Below are positions 3,907-12,167 of a DNA stretch of 12,167 nt, one piece after another. Origin of the DNA: a virus (Duplodnaviria > Heunggongvirae > Uroviricota > Caudoviricetes). Position 1 is the first letter of the stretch. Each line of letters begins with the position of its first letter. A program made the translations under genes and the position numbers. Where the stretch lies: the IMG/VR virus record IMGVR_UViG_2617270997_000007, positions 1 through 12,167 of that record. The stretch is one strand, 5' to 3'. Under the pieces are notes generated by a model, which saw nothing but the letters and a program-made list of their open reading frames with translations, ran no database searches and was not told where the DNA came from.

Positions 3907-4299
3907 ATGGCAAAAGTATTTACACCAGAAGAGCGGGAAGAAGTGAAGGCGCGCATTGTGGAATTCGTGCGCCTGAGCGGACGAGAAACTTTTCGACAAC
4001 TGGCAGATAAAACGGGTGTCAGTAAGACCGCTATTCGTCGTTTATCTGGTGCGCTTGCGGCCAGTGGTGATGTCTGGCTCTCTGGTTGCGGGGTATTTCC
4101 ATCAGAGCAGGCGTATCGCGTATGGCGTAAGACACCGGAGAAGGCTGCTGACCCGACACTGATTCGAAAGTTACCTGACGGAGAAATACGTCGTTACAAC
4201 AGACGGCAGAACATAATTTTTCGTGAGTGCCGCCAGAGCGAAGTTATGCAGCGTGTGCTGGCGTTCTATCGGGGAAACTTTCAGGAGGTGATGGAGTGA
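3907..4299 (+). CDS. Hypothetical protein with an HTH-like segment (130 aa)
   Basis: ATG 3907 with GGAGG 5 nt upstream; the track ORF starts at TTG 3892. Contains FRQLADKTGVSKTAIRRL. Its stop TGA 4297-4299 overlaps the next gene's GTG start. Confidence 0.55.
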   Translation: MAKVFTPEEREEVKARIVEFVRLSGRETFRQLADKTGVSKTAIRRLSGALAASGDVWLSGCGVFPSEQAYRVWRKTPEKAADPTLIRKLPDGEIRRYNRRQNIIFRECRQSEVMQRVLAFYRGNFQEVME

Positions 4300-4592
4300 G
4301 GGTCAGAGTTTATATTGCCGGTCCAATGACGGGATATGAAAATTTCAACCGTGAGGCGTTTCACAAGGCGGAAGAGGAACTGAAACGGGAAGGGCATACC
4401 GTCTTAAACCCGGCAGTACTTCCGGACGGGCTGACACAGCCGCACTACATGGATATTTGCATGGCAATGATTCGTTGTGTGGATGCGATTTACATGCTGA
4501 ATGGCTGGCAGCGGTCAGCGGGCGCTAAGGCAGAGCTGGCACTGGCGGAGAAACTGGGGCATGCAGTGATTTATCAGGAGGTGGCTCAATGA
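4296..4592 (+). CDS. DUF4406 / nucleoside 2-deoxyribosyltransferase-like small protein (98 aa)
   Basis: GTG 4296 with AGGAGG 7 nt upstream and a GTGA start/stop overlap. Motif VYIAGPMTGYENFN, then a conserved acidic region, as in the deoxyribosyltransferase/Rcl-like fold. Assignment is from motif memory. Confidence 0.55.
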   Translation: MRVRVYIAGPMTGYENFNREAFHKAEEELKREGHTVLNPAVLPDGLTQPHYMDICMAMIRCVDAIYMLNGWQRSAGAKAELALAEKLGHAVIYQEVAQ

Positions 4593-5056
4593 GAGAGGTT
4601 AACTATGAGGCGCTTCGTGAGGCAGCACAAAACTATCAGTCGACGCTGGCGTGGTATCAGGCTATCCCGGACAGCCCAAATGCTGAACGGGATTGTGATG
4701 CGGCTCTTGCTGCATTTAAGCGTCACATCCGTCATCGGGAAGCGGATATTATCGCTGATTTGCTGGATGGACTGGAAGAAGCAAAATCACAACTCAAAGA
4801 GCAGCGTGAGTATTACGAAGGCGTTATCTCTGATGGGAGCAAGCGTATTGCTGAACTGGAAGCGCGGGAAGTTCAATTACCGACTCGCTACGACCTTCGA
4901 TATGGACACCCGATAAATGCAGATGAGCGACATGTCATGATACCTAAAGAAAATGGCAGTTGGCTTTACCTGATTGACCTAGAACACGCATTACGCGTCT
5001 CTGGCATTCGCATCAAAGGAGAGGAGCATGGAAATAAAACCCAGAGGATGAGTTAA
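4589..5056 (+). CDS. Hypothetical phage protein with a predicted coiled-coil region (155 aa)
   Basis: ATG 4589 overlaps the upstream stop (ATGA), with GGAGG upstream. No recognisable catalytic motif. Confidence 0.6.
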   Translation: MREVNYEALREAAQNYQSTLAWYQAIPDSPNAERDCDAALAAFKRHIRHREADIIADLLDGLEEAKSQLKEQREYYEGVISDGSKRIAELEAREVQLPTRYDLRYGHPINADERHVMIPKENGSWLYLIDLEHALRVSGIRIKGEEHGNKTQRMS

Positions 5057-5086
5057 GCAATATCGTTTTATTTCCGGTAAAAGAGG

Positions 5087-5385
5087 ATGACCCTCGTAAT
5101 CAGGTTAATTTTCTTTATGAGCCATCGGAAAGACCATATTGTCATCACGCCTCTGTCCGGGTTGACGAAAAAGAGCGTCAGGTCCGCTGTAAAATCTGCG
5201 GTGCAGTTGTGGAGCCATTTGACTGGATGCTCTCTGTGGCGAAAAGAGAAACCAGACTGGCAGATGATGTAAGGCACTTGCGCCAGGAGGAGCGGGAAAG
5301 GCGAAAAAATATAGAAAAGCTAATTCAGATTGAGCGTAACGCGAAAGCGCGGATACGCAGGGCGACAAAATCCAGAACTGAATAA
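5087..5385 (+). pseudogene. Zinc-ribbon/coiled-coil ORF with a disrupted start: open frame 5038-5385 has no ATG/GTG/TTG before 5209. Possible frameshift at the T-run 5109-5116 or non-canonical initiation
   Basis: Frame-1 translation is protein-like over about 115 codons: ...NQVNFLYEPSERPYCHHASVRVDEKERQVRCKICGAVVEPFDWMLSVAKRETRLADDVRHLRQEERERRKNIEKLIQIERNAKARIRRATKSRTE*. It fills an otherwise empty 420-bp gap in a tightly packed operon. The only upstream ATG (5087) is in another frame. Confidence 0.3.
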
Positions 5386-5454
5386 TTAAATTTAGCTCTG
5401 TTAAAAATTTAATCCTTAACCGGAGGGATTTCTGCACCCTCAGAACATCAGGAG

Positions 5455-5472
5455 GCCGCCCGAAAGGGCGGT
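5455..5472 (+). promoter_or_regulatory. GC-rich hairpin with GAAA loop between the Shine-Dalgarno AGGAGG (5450-5455) and the ATG at 5479
   Basis: Stem ccgccc (5456-5461), loop gaaa, stem gggcgg (5466-5471), plus a possible G-U closing pair 5455/5472. No U-tract follows, so it is not a typical terminator. Folding would bring the SD from 23 nt to about 7 nt from the start codon. Confidence 0.35.
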
Positions 5473-5478
5473 AGTTAA

Positions 5479-5661
5479 ATGCGAAAGTTTAAAATAATTA
5501 TTGAAACGGGAATAGCCGGTGGAGATTTCGAGGATGAATTCGAAGTGGATGATGATGCGACGCCTGATGAAATACATGACGAAGCAAAAGATATTTTCTT
5601 TAACTACTGCAATTACTCATATCACGAAATAAAAGACGAAGAGGAAGAGCAAAATGGCTGA
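5479..5661 (+). CDS. Small, highly acidic protein (60 aa)
   Basis: MRKFKIIIETGIAGGDFEDEFEVDDDATPDEIHDEAKDIFFNYCNYSYHEIKDEEEEQNG: about 40% Asp/Glu. Complete ORF in the coupled operon. Confidence 0.55.
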   Translation: MRKFKIIIETGIAGGDFEDEFEVDDDATPDEIHDEAKDIFFNYCNYSYHEIKDEEEEQNG

Positions 5662-5830
5662 TTTTGGTTCAACTAAATACAACGTCAGTTTTGAAGCATG
5701 GCATGAACTGTTAATGGACTATGCAGAGTTACGTGGTGGCAGTGCTGCTGATGCTGAAGCATGGCGTGATGATTATGAAGCAGGAAAAACTCCGGTCGAA
5801 GCATATTGTGATGAGTGGGGCGATGAATGA
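5654..5830 (+). CDS. Small acidic protein (58 aa), not in the supplied ORF track
   Basis: ATG 5654 with GAGGAAG 6 nt upstream, overlapping the previous stop. Translation MADFGSTKYNVSFEAWHELLMDYAELRGGSAADAEAWRDDYEAGKTPVEAYCDEWGDE*. Its stop TGA 5828-5830 overlaps the next ATG at 5827 (ATGA). Confidence 0.45.
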   Translation: MADFGSTKYNVSFEAWHELLMDYAELRGGSAADAEAWRDDYEAGKTPVEAYCDEWGDE

Positions 5831-6342
5831 GCGAGATTAATTATCAGGAAGGGCATGAAACGGCAGGGCAGGCAAAACCAGTTGCATGGCGATATCGCTA
5901 CGTGAAAAAAGACGTTACAGACTTTCAGGGGAAGCCGTGGGCTGGTGACTGGAAATATGTACCGACAAAAGAGGATTGTAACGACAGGCCGAACTATGAA
6001 ATTCAGGCCTTATTCATCGGCCCGCCAGTCCCGGTGACATCAGAAGGACTGGTTAAAGCCGTGCGCTTTTATGAACAGGTAAAGCGTGAGAATCCGCCAG
6101 TCGAAACAGGAGCATGGAAGGATGCTGTTGACTGGGTGCTCAGAGAGGCCTGCTGCGCTGCCATTCTGGGTAAAGCCGACAATCCACCAGCATCCGGCAA
6201 TCAGGTTAGCGAATTAACAATGTGGGTTAAACGACTGGTCAGTCAACTGAAAAAAGCTCAGCCGGACTGCAAATTACCGGAGAAGGCGATGGATTACCTG
6301 AAACGAAATGGACTGATAAGCGTGGAGGATGTTTTACGATGA
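5827..6342 (+). CDS. Hypothetical phage protein (171 aa), last gene of the coupled operon
   Basis: Complete ORF with ATGA coupling to the upstream small ORF. No recognisable motif. Confidence 0.6.
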   Translation: MSEINYQEGHETAGQAKPVAWRYRYVKKDVTDFQGKPWAGDWKYVPTKEDCNDRPNYEIQALFIGPPVPVTSEGLVKAVRFYEQVKRENPPVETGAWKDAVDWVLREACCAAILGKADNPPASGNQVSELTMWVKRLVSQLKKAQPDCKLPEKAMDYLKRNGLISVEDVLR

Positions 6343-6462
6343 ATATTTAGACTAAAGAGTTTGTAACGCTATGTAAGTGATTTTTTCTGGTTTAGATATT
6401 TATATGTTCGGCCAAATTGAGGTGTGTTTAAATGTTATTGCACATTGATTGTAGGGGGAATA

Positions 6463-6642
6463 ATGAAAAACGCATTGCAGTTTTTGTTTGTTGCGTTCTG
6501 GTTGTTCGCATCATGTATGCCCATCATCTTCACAGCAAGGTATATGGAAAAAATTGATGTTTTGATATTAATGTTTGGACATATAAATGCCCTTTTTTTA
6601 GGGGTGTTCATGGCGGTCATGTGCATTGAATACTGGCGGTAA
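6463..6642 (+). CDS. Small hydrophobic membrane protein (59 aa, two predicted TM helices) in an AT-rich moron
   Basis: ATG 6463 with GGGGGA just upstream; the track ORF starts at GTG 6424. Sequence MKNALQFLFVAFWLFASCMPIIFTARYMEKIDVLILMFGHINALFLGVFMAVMCIEYWR. The surrounding region 6343-6660 is visibly AT-rich compared with its neighbours. Confidence 0.45.
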   Translation: MKNALQFLFVAFWLFASCMPIIFTARYMEKIDVLILMFGHINALFLGVFMAVMCIEYWR

Positions 6643-6784
6643 ATACAGCGAACGCCATTGGTTTAGTTGGATATTTACTGTGCCGGACAAAAACGGTTTG
6701 CGGGGAAATCTTAGTTAAGTAGAATAACTGCGGGTGCTTGAGGCTATCTGTCTCAGGCATGAACACCAAAAGGCAGATAGAGAA

Positions 6785-6851
6785 AAGCCCCAGTTAACAT
6801 TACGCGTCCTGCAAGACGCTTAACATTAATCTGAGGCCATATCTATGCGAC
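6785..6851 (-). ncRNA. sok: Sok-like antisense RNA of the hok locus (approximate position)
   Basis: Expected by analogy with hok/sok loci. A candidate - strand promoter has TTGACC (complement of 6882-6887), an 18-bp spacer and TAATCT (complement of 6858-6863), directing transcription leftward across the hok leader. The 3' end is not defined. Confidence 0.25.
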
Positions 6852-6904
6852 ACATAGAGATTAGCCTCTTACGGACCGAAAGGTCAAGGAGAAGCAGGCT
6901 ATGA
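6845..6904 (+). CDS. Mok-like short upstream ORF (19 codons) coupled to hok
   Basis: ATG 6845, translation MRHIEISLLRTERSRRSRL*, with stop TGA 6902-6904 overlapping the hok ATG (ATGA). Too short to judge on composition alone. Confidence 0.25.
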   Translation: MRHIEISLLRTERSRRSRL

Positions 6905-7056
6905 AGCAGCAAAAGGCGATGTTAATCGCCCTGATCGTCATCTGTTTAACCGTCATAGTGACGGCACTGGTAACGAGGAAAGACCTCTGCGAGGTACGAA
7001 TCCGAACCGGCCAGACGGAGGTCGCTGTCTTCACAGCTTACGAACCTGAGGAGTAA
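6901..7056 (+). CDS. hokD: Hok/Gef-family type I toxin (51 aa), HokD/RelF-like
   Basis: Translation MKQQKAMLIALIVICLTVIVTALVTRKDLCEVRIRTGQTEVAVFTAYEPEE*, which matches Hok-family toxins and, as far as I recall, E. coli HokD closely. AAGGAG lies 9 nt upstream. Absent from the ORF track because it is under 60 aa. Confidence 0.85.
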   Translation: MKQQKAMLIALIVICLTVIVTALVTRKDLCEVRIRTGQTEVAVFTAYEPEE

Positions 7057-7126
7057 GAGACCCGGCGAGGGAGAAATCCCTCGCCACCTCTGATGTGGCA
7101 GGCATTCTCAACGCACCCGCACTTAA

Positions 7127-7150
7127 CCCGCTTCGGCGGGTTTTTGTTTT
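7127..7150 (+). terminator. Rho-independent terminator at the 3' end of the hok transcript
   Basis: Stem cccgc / loop ttcg / stem gcggg followed by tttttgttttt. A separate perfect 9-bp hairpin (ggcgaggga-gaaa-tccctcgcc, 7064-7085) lies just after the hok stop and may be the 3' fold-back element of hok mRNA. Confidence 0.75.
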
Positions 7151-7590: not shown

Positions 7591-7869
7591 ATGGCACGCA
7601 ACGCAAAATATTACAAACATGATAATTCGACCGTTCTTGCCCACACGCACGAGCGGTATTCTCACGCATTTAAGTCAGACTGGTACCAGCATCCCCCATG
7701 CACTGAAGAACAGGCCGAATGGCTCATTCAGTGTTACCGCAGGCGCGGATGCGAGGTTAAAAAAGCCCTTAGCCTCGACTACCGTCACTGGATAATCTCC
7801 GTCAGGCTTCCTTACTCCGAACGCCCACCGCGTCTGTCCCGCACATTCCAGCAACGCATCTGGAGGTAA
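7591..7869 (+). CDS. Hypothetical phage protein (92 aa)
   Basis: Complete ORF with GGAG 8 nt upstream. Its stop lies 1 nt before the GTG start of the DUF968 gene. Confidence 0.55.
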   Translation: MARNAKYYKHDNSTVLAHTHERYSHAFKSDWYQHPPCTEEQAEWLIQCYRRRGCEVKKALSLDYRHWIISVRLPYSERPPRLSRTFQQRIWR

Positions 7870-8929: not shown

Positions 8930-9304
8930 ATGCTCATAGATTTGGTTTTACCTTACCCGCCGACGGTGAACACTTACTGGCGACGCCGTGGCAGCACATA
9001 TTTTATCTCGGAGGAGGGAAAGCGTTATCGCCGGGCTGTGGCGCTTATTGTTTGCCAGCAGCGGCTGAAATTAAGCCTGTCCGGAAGGCTGGCGATAAAG
9101 GTGATTGCAGAGCCACCGGATAAGCGTCGTCGCGACCTGGACAATATCCTGAAAGCACCGCTGGATGCGCTGACGCATGCGGGAGTGTTAATGGACGATG
9201 AGCAGTTTGATGAAATCAATATCGTTCGTGGTCAGCCAGTATCTGGTGGACGTCTGGGGGTGAAGATTTACCCCATAATGCATGAAGAGCAGGTCAAAAA
9301 ATGA
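8930..9304 (+). CDS. rusA: RusA crossover-junction endodeoxyribonuclease (Holliday junction resolvase), 124 aa
   Basis: Motifs PYPPTVNTYWRRRG, RRRDLDNILKAPLDALT and MDDEQ line up with the RusA signature (WPPSNNRYY, RRRDLDN, DD.Q). AGAGGTGA upstream. Confidence 0.85.
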   Translation: MLIDLVLPYPPTVNTYWRRRGSTYFISEEGKRYRRAVALIVCQQRLKLSLSGRLAIKVIAEPPDKRRRDLDNILKAPLDALTHAGVLMDDEQFDEINIVRGQPVSGGRLGVKIYPIMHEEQVKK

Positions 9305-10122
9305 AACTGGAAGATTTACCGAAATACTACTCCCCAAAATCCCCTGGCCTGACCGATGCATCGGCCTCAACGTCAAAAGATGCGCTGAGTATCACTGATG
9401 TGATGGCCGCGCAGGGCATGACACAGAATCGGGCTGAGATGGGTTTTTCTGCGTTCCTGGGGAAAATGGGCATCAGTATGAATGACAGGGTGCGGGCAAC
9501 AGAATTACTGGCAGATTATGCACTCAGTCGGTGCGATCGTGTGGCGGCGTTGAGAAAACTTCCGGCAGAAATAAAACCGGTAGTGATGCGCATTATGGCT
9601 TCGTACGCTTTTGAGGATTATGCCCGCAGCGCAGCGAGTAAAAAGCAGTGCCCTTGTTGCTATGGGGAAAAATTTATTGAAAGCATAGTTTTTACAAACA
9701 AGGTCCAGTATCCGGATGGTAAGCCGCCGGTATGGGCAAAGTGTACGAAAGGTGTGTATCCGTCTTACTGGGAAGAATGGAAAAAAGTCAGGGAGGTGGT
9801 AAAAGTTGCCTGTCCGGAGTGTGGCGGAAAGGGTGAGGTTTCCACCGCCTGTAAGGATTGCCGTGGGCGTGGTGTCGCCATTCACCGTGAAGAGTCGGTA
9901 AAACGTGGTATGCCTGTTATCAGAGACTGCCAGCGTTGTGGTGGTCGTGGCTATGAAAGACTACCATCAACGGAGGCATTTAATGCTATATGCGAGGTGA
10001 CAAACCAGATAACACGCGCGTCATGGGAAAAAACAGTTAAGAAATTCTATGATGCGCTGGTGACCCGGTTTGATATTGAAGAAGCATGGGCTGAGCGGCA
10101 GTTAAAAAAGGTAACTAGGTAA
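9301..10122 (+). CDS. Late-gene antitermination protein Q-like (273 aa) with CxxC zinc fingers
   Basis: ATG 9301 overlaps the rusA stop (ATGA). Cys-rich C-terminal region CPECGGKGEVSTACKDCRGRG...CQRCGGRGY. Sits directly upstream of a lambda-type PR', the canonical Q position. Confidence 0.6.
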   Translation: MKLEDLPKYYSPKSPGLTDASASTSKDALSITDVMAAQGMTQNRAEMGFSAFLGKMGISMNDRVRATELLADYALSRCDRVAALRKLPAEIKPVVMRIMASYAFEDYARSAASKKQCPCCYGEKFIESIVFTNKVQYPDGKPPVWAKCTKGVYPSYWEEWKKVREVVKVACPECGGKGEVSTACKDCRGRGVAIHREESVKRGMPVIRDCQRCGGRGYERLPSTEAFNAICEVTNQITRASWEKTVKKFYDALVTRFDIEEAWAERQLKKVTR

Positions 10123-10128
10123 CAAGGT

Positions 10129-10156
10129 TGATTTTTCCGGAATCTGTGGTAAATTC
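10129..10156 (+). promoter_or_regulatory. Late promoter PR' (lambda-type), with the downstream pause-region motif
   Basis: -35 TTGATT (10129-10134), 16-bp spacer containing TGg, -10 TAAATT (10151-10156), then cgtcataacgATGGG. Lambda PR' as I recall it is TTGACT ... TAAATT tgactcaacgATGGG, so the -10 and the aacgATGGG block are shared. Confidence 0.6.
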
Positions 10157-10204
10157 GTCATAACGATGGGCCTTTTATGCCTGACGTTAGAAGAGTTTCT
10201 ACAA

Positions 10205-10229
10205 CCCGCCGCCGAGCGGGTTTTTTATT
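10205..10229 (+). terminator. Rho-independent terminator about 50-65 nt downstream of PR' (tR'-like)
   Basis: Stem cccgc (10206-10210), loop cgccga, stem gcggg (10217-10221), then tttttt. Confidence 0.6.
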
Positions 10230-10264
10230 GCGGAATTAATTACGGACCGTTATTATTCTGCTCC

Positions 10265-10340
10265 CGGCCCTTTAGCTCAGTGGTGAGAGCGAGCGACTCA
10301 TAATCGCCAGGTCGCTGGTTCAAATCCAGCAAGGGCCACC
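10265..10340 (+). tRNA. ileZ: tRNA-Ile2 (anticodon CAU, lysidine type; formally also readable as Met), 76 nt with encoded CCA
   Basis: Cloverleaf folded by hand: acceptor ggccctt/aagggcc, D-stem gctc/gagc, anticodon loop ctCATaa, T-arm gctgg-ttcaaat-ccagc, discriminator A, CCA. Near-identical to E. coli ileX as recalled. Confidence 0.85.
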
Positions 10341-10347
10341 ATCACAT

Positions 10348-10424
10348 ACCGCCATTAGCTCATCAGGAAAGAGCGCCAGCCTTCGAAGCTGGTTGCGCGG
10401 AGTTCGGGTCCCCGAAGGCGGTCC
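10348..10424 (+). tRNA. argN: tRNA-Arg (anticodon UCG), 77 nt, with non-canonical features
   Basis: Anticodon arm ccagc-ctTCGaa-gctgg is perfect and D-stem gctc/gagc is good. The acceptor stem has one A-A mismatch at pair 6, the T-stem has one A-C mismatch, and the T-loop is ttcgggt (G where the conserved A58 is expected). CCA is encoded. Confidence 0.6.
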
Positions 10425-10437
10425 ATTATCTGTATCC

Positions 10438-10514
10438 TGCGTTGTTAGCTCAGCCGGACAGAGCAATTGCCTTCTAAGCAATCGGTCACTGGTTCGAATC
10501 CAGTACAACGCGCC
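10438..10514 (+). tRNA. argO: tRNA-Arg (anticodon UCU), 77 nt with encoded CCA
   Basis: Clean cloverleaf: acceptor gcgttgt/acaacgc, D-stem gctc/gagc, anticodon arm attgc-ctTCTaa-gcaat, T-arm actgg-ttcgaat-ccagt, discriminator G, CCA. Confidence 0.85.
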
Positions 10515-10529
10515 ACACTTATTTTCCCT

Positions 10530-10552
10530 GGCTCGCTTTTGCGGGCTTTTTT
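10530..10552 (+). terminator. Rho-independent terminator after the tRNA cluster
   Basis: Stem ggctcgc (with one G-U pair), loop tttt, stem gcgggc, followed by a 7-nt T-run. Confidence 0.6.
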
Positions 10553-10557
10553 TTAAA

Positions 10558-10770
10558 TGTCTCACAATTCAGGCGGTTGACTGTTGTCTGGTTTGCGGGG
10601 AGTTTGTTAAAAGAAACTGGCATGGTGAATCCCCCTGTGCGGAGGGGCAATCAGCGAGTAGGTATATGGGATAATCGCGGATTCAGGTGCTGGTACTGAA
10701 TTCACCGGGAGGCACCCGGCACCATGCAATGGCACATAGCGCCACTCTCCAGCCCCTCTCCGGAGGGGCT
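10558..10770 (+). repeat. Structured repeat module A: promoter-like -35, two conserved GC hairpins and a terminal terminator hairpin (candidate small RNA or leader cassette)
   Basis: Shares ordered blocks with module B: ctcacaattcag; TTGACT (10574-10579); tttgttaaaa; hairpin cccct-gtgcgg-agggg (10629-10644); hairpin ccggg-aggca-cccgg (10702-10716) followed by ATG; terminator gcccctc-tccg-gaggggc (10749-10766) plus tttt. Confidence 0.6.
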
Positions 10771-10964
10771 TTTCTGTGCCGGATACATCACAGTTTCTGG
10801 AACCTTAGGTACTACAGTATCAGTCAGGGTGCTATATTTTCAGATGTGATGAAAGCCTGTCAGCAGGCAGGGCGTATCGGAAATGACCCAGTAGAGAAAA
10901 CGTTGACTCAGATACCGGTGCTGAGTTACCGGGAAACCGGCATCACATGACCGCTATCCTTCCA

Positions 10965-10991
10965 GGCCCATCCGCTCCGGTGGGCCTTTTT
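10965..10991 (+). terminator. Rho-independent terminator between the two repeat modules
   Basis: Stem ggccca (10965-10970), 10-nt loop, stem tgggcc (10981-10986), then ttttt. It closes a short unit containing a possible 33-codon ORF at 10849-10950, which has no convincing Shine-Dalgarno and is not called. Confidence 0.45.
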
Positions 10992-11028
10992 ACTGCAGAA
11001 AACAGGTTCCCCGTTAAATGCTATGTTG

Positions 11029-11262
11029 CTCACAATTCAGTAAGTTGACAGTTGCCTGTCAGACTGGGCATTTGTTAAAAAAATTTCGCATGGTGAATCC
11101 CCCTGAGCGGAGGGGCGACTGGTGACGGTATAATCTCTGATTATCAAAACGAGAATGACGCGGGTTTAGTGGCACCGGGCTGAACTCACCGGGAGGCACC
11201 CGGCACCATGTGCATGATGATACAGATACGCGGCTTTAGCCCCTCTCCGGAGGGGCTTTCTT
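11029..11262 (+). repeat. Structured repeat module B, paralogous to module A
   Basis: Same blocks in the same order: ctcacaattcag (11029-11040); TTGACA (11045-11050); tttgttaaaa; hairpin ccccctgagcggagggg; a TATAAT at 11129-11134; caccgggaggcacccggcaccATG; terminator gcccctc-tccg-gaggggc (11239-11256) plus T-tract. It has about 20 bp of insertion relative to A. Confidence 0.6.
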
Positions 11263-11267
11263 ATGGA

Positions 11268-11297
11268 CAAAAAAAGCCCGCGCTGGGAGACGCGGGC
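11268..11297 (-). terminator. Minus-strand intrinsic terminator immediately after module B
   Basis: On the + strand an A7 tract (11269-11275) precedes the hairpin gcccgcg-ctgggaga-cgcgggc (11276-11297). Read on the - strand this is hairpin plus U-tract. No convincing - strand gene lies upstream of it. Confidence 0.4.
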
Positions 11298-11490
11298 GGC
11301 AAGGAATAAACAATAAAACGTGAAGTAATATTTCAGCTGGCGAATAATACCCCATAGTAATCACTCTGCGCAACTGCGCGGTCTTTTTCGAATTGCGGGC
11401 TGTAGTCTCCCTTCTGCCATTGTCCTGTAACTTCCGGACTTCAGCCTGCTCCTTATCTGACTCACAACATTATCCCGCCCGGGAGGATTC

Positions 11491-11679
11491 ATGGCATTTA
11501 AACACTATGACGTGGTCAGGGCGGCATCGCCGTCAGACCTTGCGAAACGACTGACACAAAAACTGAAGGAGGGCTGGCAGCCGTTTGGTAGTCCGGTGGC
11601 CATAACCCCTTATACCCTGATGCAGGCGATTGCAGCAGAAGGTGATGTGGTGGTCAGTGGTGCAACTGAGCCGGAGTGA
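11491..11679 (+). CDS. DUF1737-like small protein (62 aa), commonly found just upstream of lambdoid lysis cassettes
   Basis: Complete ORF with GGGAGG 5 nt upstream. Translation [62 protein letters not shown]. Family assignment is from memory of position and size. Confidence 0.55.
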   Translation: MAFKHYDVVRAASPSDLAKRLTQKLKEGWQPFGSPVAITPYTLMQAIAAEGDVVVSGATEPE

Positions 11680-11837
11680 TACTACGTCATCGTACTGGCC
11701 CGGCATTCCAGGCCATAAAAGACGGTCTGGCAGTGGGACTAAATGCACTGACGCTGACGGATATTACCAAAAATGCAACGTATGGCGTTGAGATAGAAAG
11801 TCTGGTGCTGGAGATAAATGCACCGGCATCATCATAA
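11676..11837 (+). CDS. Possible small ORF (54 codons, GTG start) coupled to the DUF1737-like gene; not in the ORF track
   Basis: GTG 11676-11678 overlaps the upstream TGA (GTGA). Translation [53 protein letters not shown]. The upstream ribosome-binding site is weak. Confidence 0.3.
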
Positions 11838-11921
11838 AAAGTGAGCCAGTCAAATGGAAGGTATCGTTAAACTCACCGGTAGTGTCAGTGGGTCGTCTGA
11901 GACGCCTGCATGAGTTATCAG

Positions 11922-11950
11922 AGCCATCAGTACTTAACTGGTGGCTTTTT
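11922..11950 (+). terminator. Rho-independent terminator 28 nt upstream of the holin start
   Basis: Stem gccatcag (11922-11929), loop tacttaa, stem ctggtggc (one G-U pair), followed by ttttttatt. Confidence 0.55.
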
Positions 11951-11977
11951 TATTGTTGTCAGCTTCCGGATAACGGG

Positions 11978-12167
11978 AGACGGGGTATGTACCAGATGGA
12001 AAAAATCACAACAGGTGTGTCATACACCACGTCAGCGGTGGGAACGGGCTACTGGTTCCTGCAGTTGCTGGACAGGGTTTCCCCGTCTCAGTGGGCGGCA
12101 ATAGGCGTGCTGGGGAGTCTGCTGTTTGGGCTGCTGACATATCTGACTAACCTGTATTTCAAAATCA
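11978..12167 (+). CDS. S: Class II holin (phage 21 S21-type pinholin), 3' end cut off by the window
   Basis: Translation [60 protein letters not shown]... resembles S21 as recalled ([63 protein letters not shown]...). Two in-frame starts at codons 1 and 4 (ATG 11978 and 11987). No stop before position 12167. Confidence 0.8.

Follow-up and report, generated by a model that had tools for sequence, protein, structure and literature searches.

The window considered here, by which we mean the whole stretch of 12,167 nucleotides that was analysed, ends in a region where a lambda-family Q gene is followed by the late promoter PR', the terminator tR', three tRNA genes of the ileZ-argN-argO type, a series of STnc100 modules, a convergent small RNA (sRNA), a remnant of nanS-p, a terminator and a holin gene. 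This region very probably represents the 'moron' slot of a lambdoid E. coli prophage together with the control region of its late genes, with the layout of an Stx2 phage in which non-coding RNA cargo replaces the toxin genes. An Stx-phage-like layout of Q, PR', tR' and Ile/Arg/Arg tRNAs had already been claimed in a preliminary description of this DNA, and every element named there has been found in its place. The arrangement itself is known and very common: earlier work has covered the tRNAs and sRNAs of the PR' moron site as well as the site itself, including the description of the site and its convergent sRNAs in Tree et al. 2014. What is new lies at the level of annotation, namely a middle STnc100-like module and a minus-strand RNA at the position of AsxR, both of which are widespread and carry no annotation in RefSeq.

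Q, the late promoter and tR'

The Q gene (9301-10122, plus strand) encodes a late-gene antiterminator of the lambda-Q family, as indicated by its PF03589 match (E=2.2e-54) and by BLASTP against lambda Q (31% identity, E=4e-41). The protein is 273 residues long and contains, relative to lambda Q, an insertion of 66 residues that is rich in CxxC motifs, the extra pairs of which suggest an additional zinc-binding element. This Q also gives a weak match to the DnaJ CXXCXGXG motif, which at 28 bits lies below the cut-off. Sequence comparison with the Q protein of Sp5, the Stx2a prophage of O157:H7 Sakai, which is 933W-like, detects no similarity between the two, the Sp5 protein having 144 residues. 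The proposed likeness to the 933W/Sakai phages is thus borne out by the tRNA trio and not by Q, which is of the lambda type and unrelated to that of 933W/Sp5.

The late promoter PR' (10129-10170, plus strand) begins seven bases past the Q stop codon with the -35 element TTGATT (10129-10134), which is followed by the -10 element TAAATT (10150-10155) and by the -10-like, sigma-dependent pause element AACGAT(GGG) at 10162-10170. The stretch TAAATT-N6-AACGATGGG (10150-10170) has the same sequence and spacing as the -10 element and initial transcribed region of lambda PR', and it occurs once in the window against an expectation of 0; the resemblance to lambda PR' noted earlier therefore extends to a -10 and a pause element that are identical in sequence and in spacing. 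Transcription is predicted to start at about 10162, and a pausing role for AACGAT at this promoter is inferred from the established biology of lambda. A simple sigma-70 scan detected neither PR' nor the promoter of the tRNA genes, since both score below 9 of 12, so homology to lambda and Sp5 was used for both.

The intrinsic terminator tR' (10203-10229, plus strand) was located by a terminator scan and consists of a G+C-rich hairpin of 20 nucleotides followed by a T run, folding into a 7-bp GC hairpin with a U run. A short PR' transcript ended at this site would be about 67 nt long, against the 194 nt of lambda 6S RNA. As regards lambda-Q-type late control, the region shows a homologous Q, a promoter with a pause element after Q, and tR' with a lysis cassette downstream of it. 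The lambda series of Q, PR', 6S RNA and tR' shares with the window the homologous Q, the identical -10 and pause elements and their identical spacing, but lambda, unlike the window, has neither tRNAs nor sRNA cargo ahead of S.

The tRNA cassette

Downstream of tR' lie three plus-strand tRNA genes, all found by ARAGORN and Rfam: a tRNA-Ile2 with anticodon CAU, of the ileZ type (10266-10341), a tRNA-Arg (UCG) of the argN type (10349-10425) and a tRNA-Arg (UCU) of the argO type (10439-10515), the last of them also identified by homology to Sp5. These names follow the Sakai annotation. Taken together with the promoter region 5' of it and its terminator, the cassette shows 92.4% identity over 330 bp to those of Sp5 and Lyz12581Vzw, and 92.7% to that of Stx2_EH1910. 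The anticodons CAU, UCG and UCU follow one another in this order between Q and the slot, so that the trio is indeed the Stx-phage arrangement, as the preliminary description held, with 92.4% identity to Sp5.

The tRNA with anticodon CAU was labelled Met by ARAGORN, a label that has been set aside, as the gene is 100% identical to Sakai ileZ2 and far from metT. It agrees with K-12 ileX at 68 of 76 positions, is annotated as tRNA-Ile by PGAP in the relatives of the window, and keeps the pairs C4-G69 and C5-G68, which are TilS determinants. On these sequence features it is an Ile2 tRNA of the lysidine type and not a Met tRNA, and it is predicted to read AUA after lysidine modification. The argN-type tRNA, with one non-canonical pair in its acceptor stem and another in its T stem, scores 43.4 bits, whereas the copy in Sp5 reaches 54.8 bits, and may be decaying. 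Next to the anticodon of the argO-type tRNA, position 37 is A, in contrast to the G of Sp5 and Lyz12581Vzw (CTTCTAAGC versus CTTCTGAGC).

Directly 5' of the tRNA genes lies the promoter-like sequence TTGCGG-N17-TATTAT (10228-10256, plus strand), which is conserved in Sp5. It has been shown by Sy et al. 2020 (PMC7547250) that a primary transcription start maps in Sp5 between tR' and stx2AB, driving the tRNAs, and by analogy a tRNA promoter is inferred at 10228-10256 of the window. At its other end the cassette is closed by a plus-strand terminator (10530-10555), recognized by the terminator scan and by homology, which is the final sequence common with the Stx phages ahead of the slot. A 1.5-kb module with a hypothetical gene and a DNA methyltransferase gene, present in the prophage of strain DP051 and in Stx2_EH1910, is absent at 10226-10228 of the window; its breakpoint falls exactly between the T run of tR' and the tRNA promoter, the -35 element of which overlaps the tail of the terminator.

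The codons that these tRNAs could serve are frequent in the open reading frames of the window, where ATA occurs 10.7 times per 1000 codons, AGA 5.2, AGG 6.5, CGA 12.4 and CGG 14.1, the typical values in E. coli K-12 being about 2-5 times lower. This usage is consistent with the usual idea that such tRNAs support the translation of phage genes.

Content of the toxin slot

Three alignment blocks with Sp5 fix the position of the toxin genes. The first (10226-10553 of the window) covers the tRNA cassette and its flanks at 92.4% identity, the second (11030-11598) corresponds to the region past stx2B at 77%, and the third (11918-12165) comprises the sequence just upstream of the holin gene and the start of this gene at 94%. 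From these blocks it follows that stx2AB corresponds exactly to 10554-11029 of the window, a slot of 476 bp that is bounded on the late strand by PR'/tR' on one side and the holin gene on the other. Its boundaries are the same in the two Stx2 phages, where stx2AB occupies positions 4055-5393 of the Sp5 sequence (L004) and 5287-6625 of the Stx2_EH1910 sequence (L010). In this comparison stx2AB appears as an exchangeable cassette, the exact position of which is between the argO terminator and an STnc100 module.

There is no stx remnant in the window, as searched by tblastn with Stx2A and Stx2B (best E=0.17), and a sensitive blastn comparison with the stx2 operon gives a match limited to the 31-nt argO terminator, in agreement with the earlier view that no toxin genes are present. 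The accompanying statement that no ORF of StxA or StxB size follows needs to be qualified, as ORFs of StxB size do exist in a mechanical sense, one of 87 aa at 10687-10950 and one of 93 aa at 10393-10674; both overlap tRNA or sRNA genes. The 87-aa ORF has been treated as spurious, for it has no Pfam match and overlaps the sRNA modules.

The slot itself carries one STnc100 sRNA gene and one diverged STnc100-like module, so that the alternative cargo of the toxin slot is regulatory RNA. STnc100-a (10561-10781, plus strand) occupies the first part of the slot and matches RF02076 at 10591-10781 with 136.3 bits, against a gathering score of 47 bits for this Rfam family, and it has a terminator at 10751-10770. 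The middle module (10820-10993, plus strand; terminator 10964-10987) reaches 30.1 bits in a local search (E=4e-5), which is below the gathering score, and it is regarded as a diverged relative rather than as a scored member. Past the slot lies STnc100-b (11059-11268, plus strand; 165.4 bits), which is orthologous to the STnc100 gene located after stx2B in Stx2 phages, with 77-87% identity to the post-stx2B region of Sp5, Lyz12581Vzw and EH1910; STnc100 has been located 75 nt after stx2 (PMC12370729). The preliminary description spoke of structured repeat modules and a DUF1737-like gene in the slot; the former can now be identified as STnc100 sRNA genes, and the latter is the 5' stump of nanS-p.

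The fold of the middle module has the STnc100 architecture, with a closing helix, three internal hairpins, a linker and a terminator (z=-2.7), its closing helix AUGUGAUG/CAUCACAU replacing the GCAUGGUG/CACCAUGC of STnc100. The module is found at 704 places in 673 of 5426 complete E. coli genomes (about 12%), has no annotation in RefSeq, and occurs as two alleles, of at least 99% and about 90% identity. Comparison of the alleles reveals one-sided changes only and no compensatory ones, and some substitutions break predicted pairs. The extended -10-like sequence TCAGGGTGCTATATTTTC located 5' of the module is fully conserved between them, and the sequence farther upstream diverges. Putative promoters of the modules are TGTTAAAA at 10605 and 11073, and TGCTATATT near 10830-10838, all of which are guesses at the level of sequence. 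Rfam matches to Trp_leader, isrK and OmrA-B in this part of the window are weak, score below threshold and are attributable to terminator hairpins.

It has been reported that PasD resembles STnc100 and adjoins a PF03589 Q gene (preprint 10.64898/2026.05.13.724894), and that it is abundant and Hfq-dependent in uninduced EPEC (PMC8550237). Like the modules of the window, PasD1 and PasD2 of EPEC E2348/69 follow a PF03589 Q and consist of a GCAUGGUGAAUCC...CCAUGC scaffold and then a linker and a terminator, but they have another linker or seed, and the divergence is too great for BLAST. No homologue of PasA or PasC was found in the window, and the PP2 intergenic region of E2348/69 has no match to it. 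The three modules differ most in the linker before the terminator, which is where the seed of PasD sits, and distinct target sets are therefore plausible by analogy. The motif CTCACA is present only three times on the plus strand of the 12-kb window, at 10561, 11029 and 11461, all in the moron slot; two of these sites open STnc100 modules, and the nanS-p remnant has the third just 5' of its ribosome-binding site. The seed of PasD is reported to target CUCACA, but three sites are as many as chance predicts, and the coincidence may mean nothing.

Facing STnc100-b is a short convergent sRNA candidate on the minus strand (11270-11330; z=-3.6 for its fold; 5' end uncertain), the terminator of which (11297-11276) abuts that of STnc100-b. 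It has the position and orientation that AsxR has in Sp5, with a different sequence. Membership in the AgvB/AsxR families (RF02702/RF02703) was rejected, because a 1.4-kb search returned no match at E<=10, the Sp5 control scoring 88 bits. Sp5 and seven further Sakai prophages are reported to carry, at their PR' moron sites, convergent sRNAs that bind Hfq (PMC4104026). The candidate matches at 48 of 54 aligned positions an RNA from Hfq RIL-seq in EPEC, "E2348C_1409.E2348C_1408.IGR" (PMC8550237 supplement), the targets of which share a motif complementary to CUUGCG (PMC8550237). A more far-reaching reading, which we put forward only tentatively and would not yet favor, is that the three-module STnc100-family array, with its common structured scaffold and differing single-stranded linkers, constitutes a multi-seed set of Hfq-dependent sRNAs, with the middle module as a new expressed subfamily and the RNA at 11270-11330 as a third family at the anti-sRNA position, next to AsxR and AgvB.

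A terminator-like hairpin on the plus strand (CTGCGCAACTGCGCGG and a T run, 11366-11381) separates the two convergent sRNAs from the nanS-p remnant and is conserved in Sp5 and Lyz12581Vzw. The remnant of the nanS-p esterase gene (11491-11837, plus strand; Pfam DUF1737) consists of two gene ends: ORF62 (11491-11679) corresponds to NanS-p residues 1-61, the DUF1737 part, with 88% identity by BLASTP, and ORF53 (11676-11837) to the last 45 residues, with 82%. The SASA catalytic part between them is deleted, and in strain DP051 RefSeq annotates the remnant as a pseudogene. Part of the region may thus be decaying, with argN carrying two mismatched stem pairs and nanS-p deleted. A strong intrinsic terminator (11920-11954, plus strand; 12-bp stem and T run, z=-3.9 for its fold) lies directly 5' of the start of a phage 21-type class II holin S gene (11987-12167, plus strand; PF04971, E=2e-28), a marker of the lysis cassette, which runs off the window.

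Expression and origin of the cargo

The region from 9800 to 12167 holds 15 terminator-like sites, against 2.4 +/- 1.5 expected, a density in keeping with self-contained modules whose transcription has to be kept out of the lysis genes. In the model proposed here, PR' would fire constitutively in the lysogen and transcription would stop at tR', as constitutive PR' transcription halted at tR' has been described (PMC7547250). The tRNA cassette, and probably the sRNA modules too, would be transcribed from their own promoters, and the terminator of each module would halt its transcript, so that there is no read-in to the lysis genes. Upon induction, Q would load onto RNA polymerase paused at +16/17 by the AACGAT element, and the modified polymerase would pass all seven plus-strand terminators, tR' and six further ones, into S. 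This read-through would raise the levels of the tRNAs reading AUA, CGA/CGG and AGA/AGG. For the sRNAs the most likely role would be Hfq-dependent regulation of mRNAs from both host and prophage; as in their relative PasD, base-pairing would involve the variable linker that precedes the terminator of each.

It had been emphasized earlier that whatever sits in the slot is placed for expression on Q-dependent late transcription. As far as placement goes this is correct, the slot being on the late strand, but expression is probably not only Q-dependent, since the tRNA promoter region mapped in Sp5 is kept and the modules have promoter-like sequences and terminators of their own. The stricter form of that idea, namely that the cargo is expressed solely on the late transcript and plays no part in the lysogen, draws on everything lying on the late strand, 3' of PR' and tR'. 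It is unlikely, because every module ends in its own terminator, one element lies on the opposite strand, and PasD, the convergent sRNAs adjoining AsxR and the tRNA transcription start have all been detected in uninduced cultures. Judging from the sequence, lysogens probably express the tRNAs and the sRNA modules, with Q enhancing this expression.

Alignment to the Sakai-type Stx prophage and to stx-negative relatives, which the preliminary description had proposed, finds the tRNA trio homologous and the slot occupied by the sRNA modules. Sp5 shares with the window the tRNA cassette (92%) and the STnc100 gene after the slot (77%), as well as a convergent short sRNA, then the 5' end of nanS-p and a class II holin; it differs in its unrelated Q, a longer PR'-tR' segment, stx2AB in place of two sRNA modules, AsxR instead of the minus-strand RNA of the window, and an intact nanS-p. 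The Stx2a-converting phage Stx2_EH1910 (LC567834) is even closer than Sp5, as it has the same rusA, the lambda-type Q of 273 aa, PR' and tR' (90%), the tRNAs (93%), STnc100-b (87%), the start of nanS-p and the holin. It differs by a 1.5-kb insert with a hypothetical gene and a DNA methylase gene between tR' and the tRNAs, by stx2AB in the slot at the same breakpoints, by iraM on the minus strand and by a full-length esterase.

Among the toxin-free relatives, the DP051 prophage is 99.8% identical from the tRNAs through the holin, differing by the methylase insert upstream of the tRNAs, and the E. coli type strain ATCC 11775 is 100% identical over 10470-11028. Identity to strain 266917_2 is 99.5% from the immunity region up to and including the tRNAs, past which this strain has DUF3927, iraM, a full esterase, DUF1378 and DUF826. 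The toxin-free phage vB_EcoS-813R8 has tRNA-Ile alone annotated, plus iraM, and in ECONIH6 the only tRNA is tRNA-Ile, accompanied by the second allele of the middle module. As these relatives show by their sequences, the slot is mosaic. The whole window, taken without interruption, is matched by no genome of the collection.

Among the 5426 complete E. coli genomes the junction of argO to STnc100-a as in the window (at least 80% covered) is found in 1632 genomes (about 30%), whereas stx2AB is present in 602 genomes (743 places) and stx1AB in 349 (360 places). The toxin-free layout is therefore the usual state, and the Stx phages are the special case. It could be argued that the window descends from an Stx phage in which stx2AB or stx1AB was deleted, the region being the scar, given that both flanks of the slot are common to Stx2 phages and that a deletion is evident in nanS-p. 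The chances of this are slim, as the slot is filled by 476 bp of alternative cargo without similarity to stx, and the junction occurs, type strain included, in more genomes than all the stx-positive ones together. Exchange of cassettes fits better.

The tRNA cassette (at least 80% covered) is present in 2291 of the 5426 genomes and, counting all matches, at 7597 places, up to 13 per genome. A preprint on the Pas sRNAs has read tRNA matches near them, which lie mainly in prophage regions, as marks of integration sites, and has detected no unambiguous tRNA matches near these sRNAs in bacteriophage genomes (10.64898/2026.05.13.724894). Prophages do often integrate at tRNA genes, but that the present trio is a remnant of a chromosomal integration site rather than phage cargo is extremely improbable, as it lies between Q and the holin gene with phage genes on both sides, recurs so often within single genomes, has retained the promoter region that was mapped in Sp5, and appears at this same position in the annotation of the phage genomes Lyz12581Vzw and Stx2_EH1910. 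With the annotated trio in sequenced Stx2 phage genomes (L003, L010), the integration-site reading of the preprint does not hold for this cassette.

Elsewhere in the window, a hok/sok type I toxin-antitoxin locus is present at 6732-7146, with HokD at 6901-7056 and an Rfam match to sok of 107 bits (6732-6903). After it come a weak isrK-like match (7065-7146; 26.6 bits, below threshold) and then rem.
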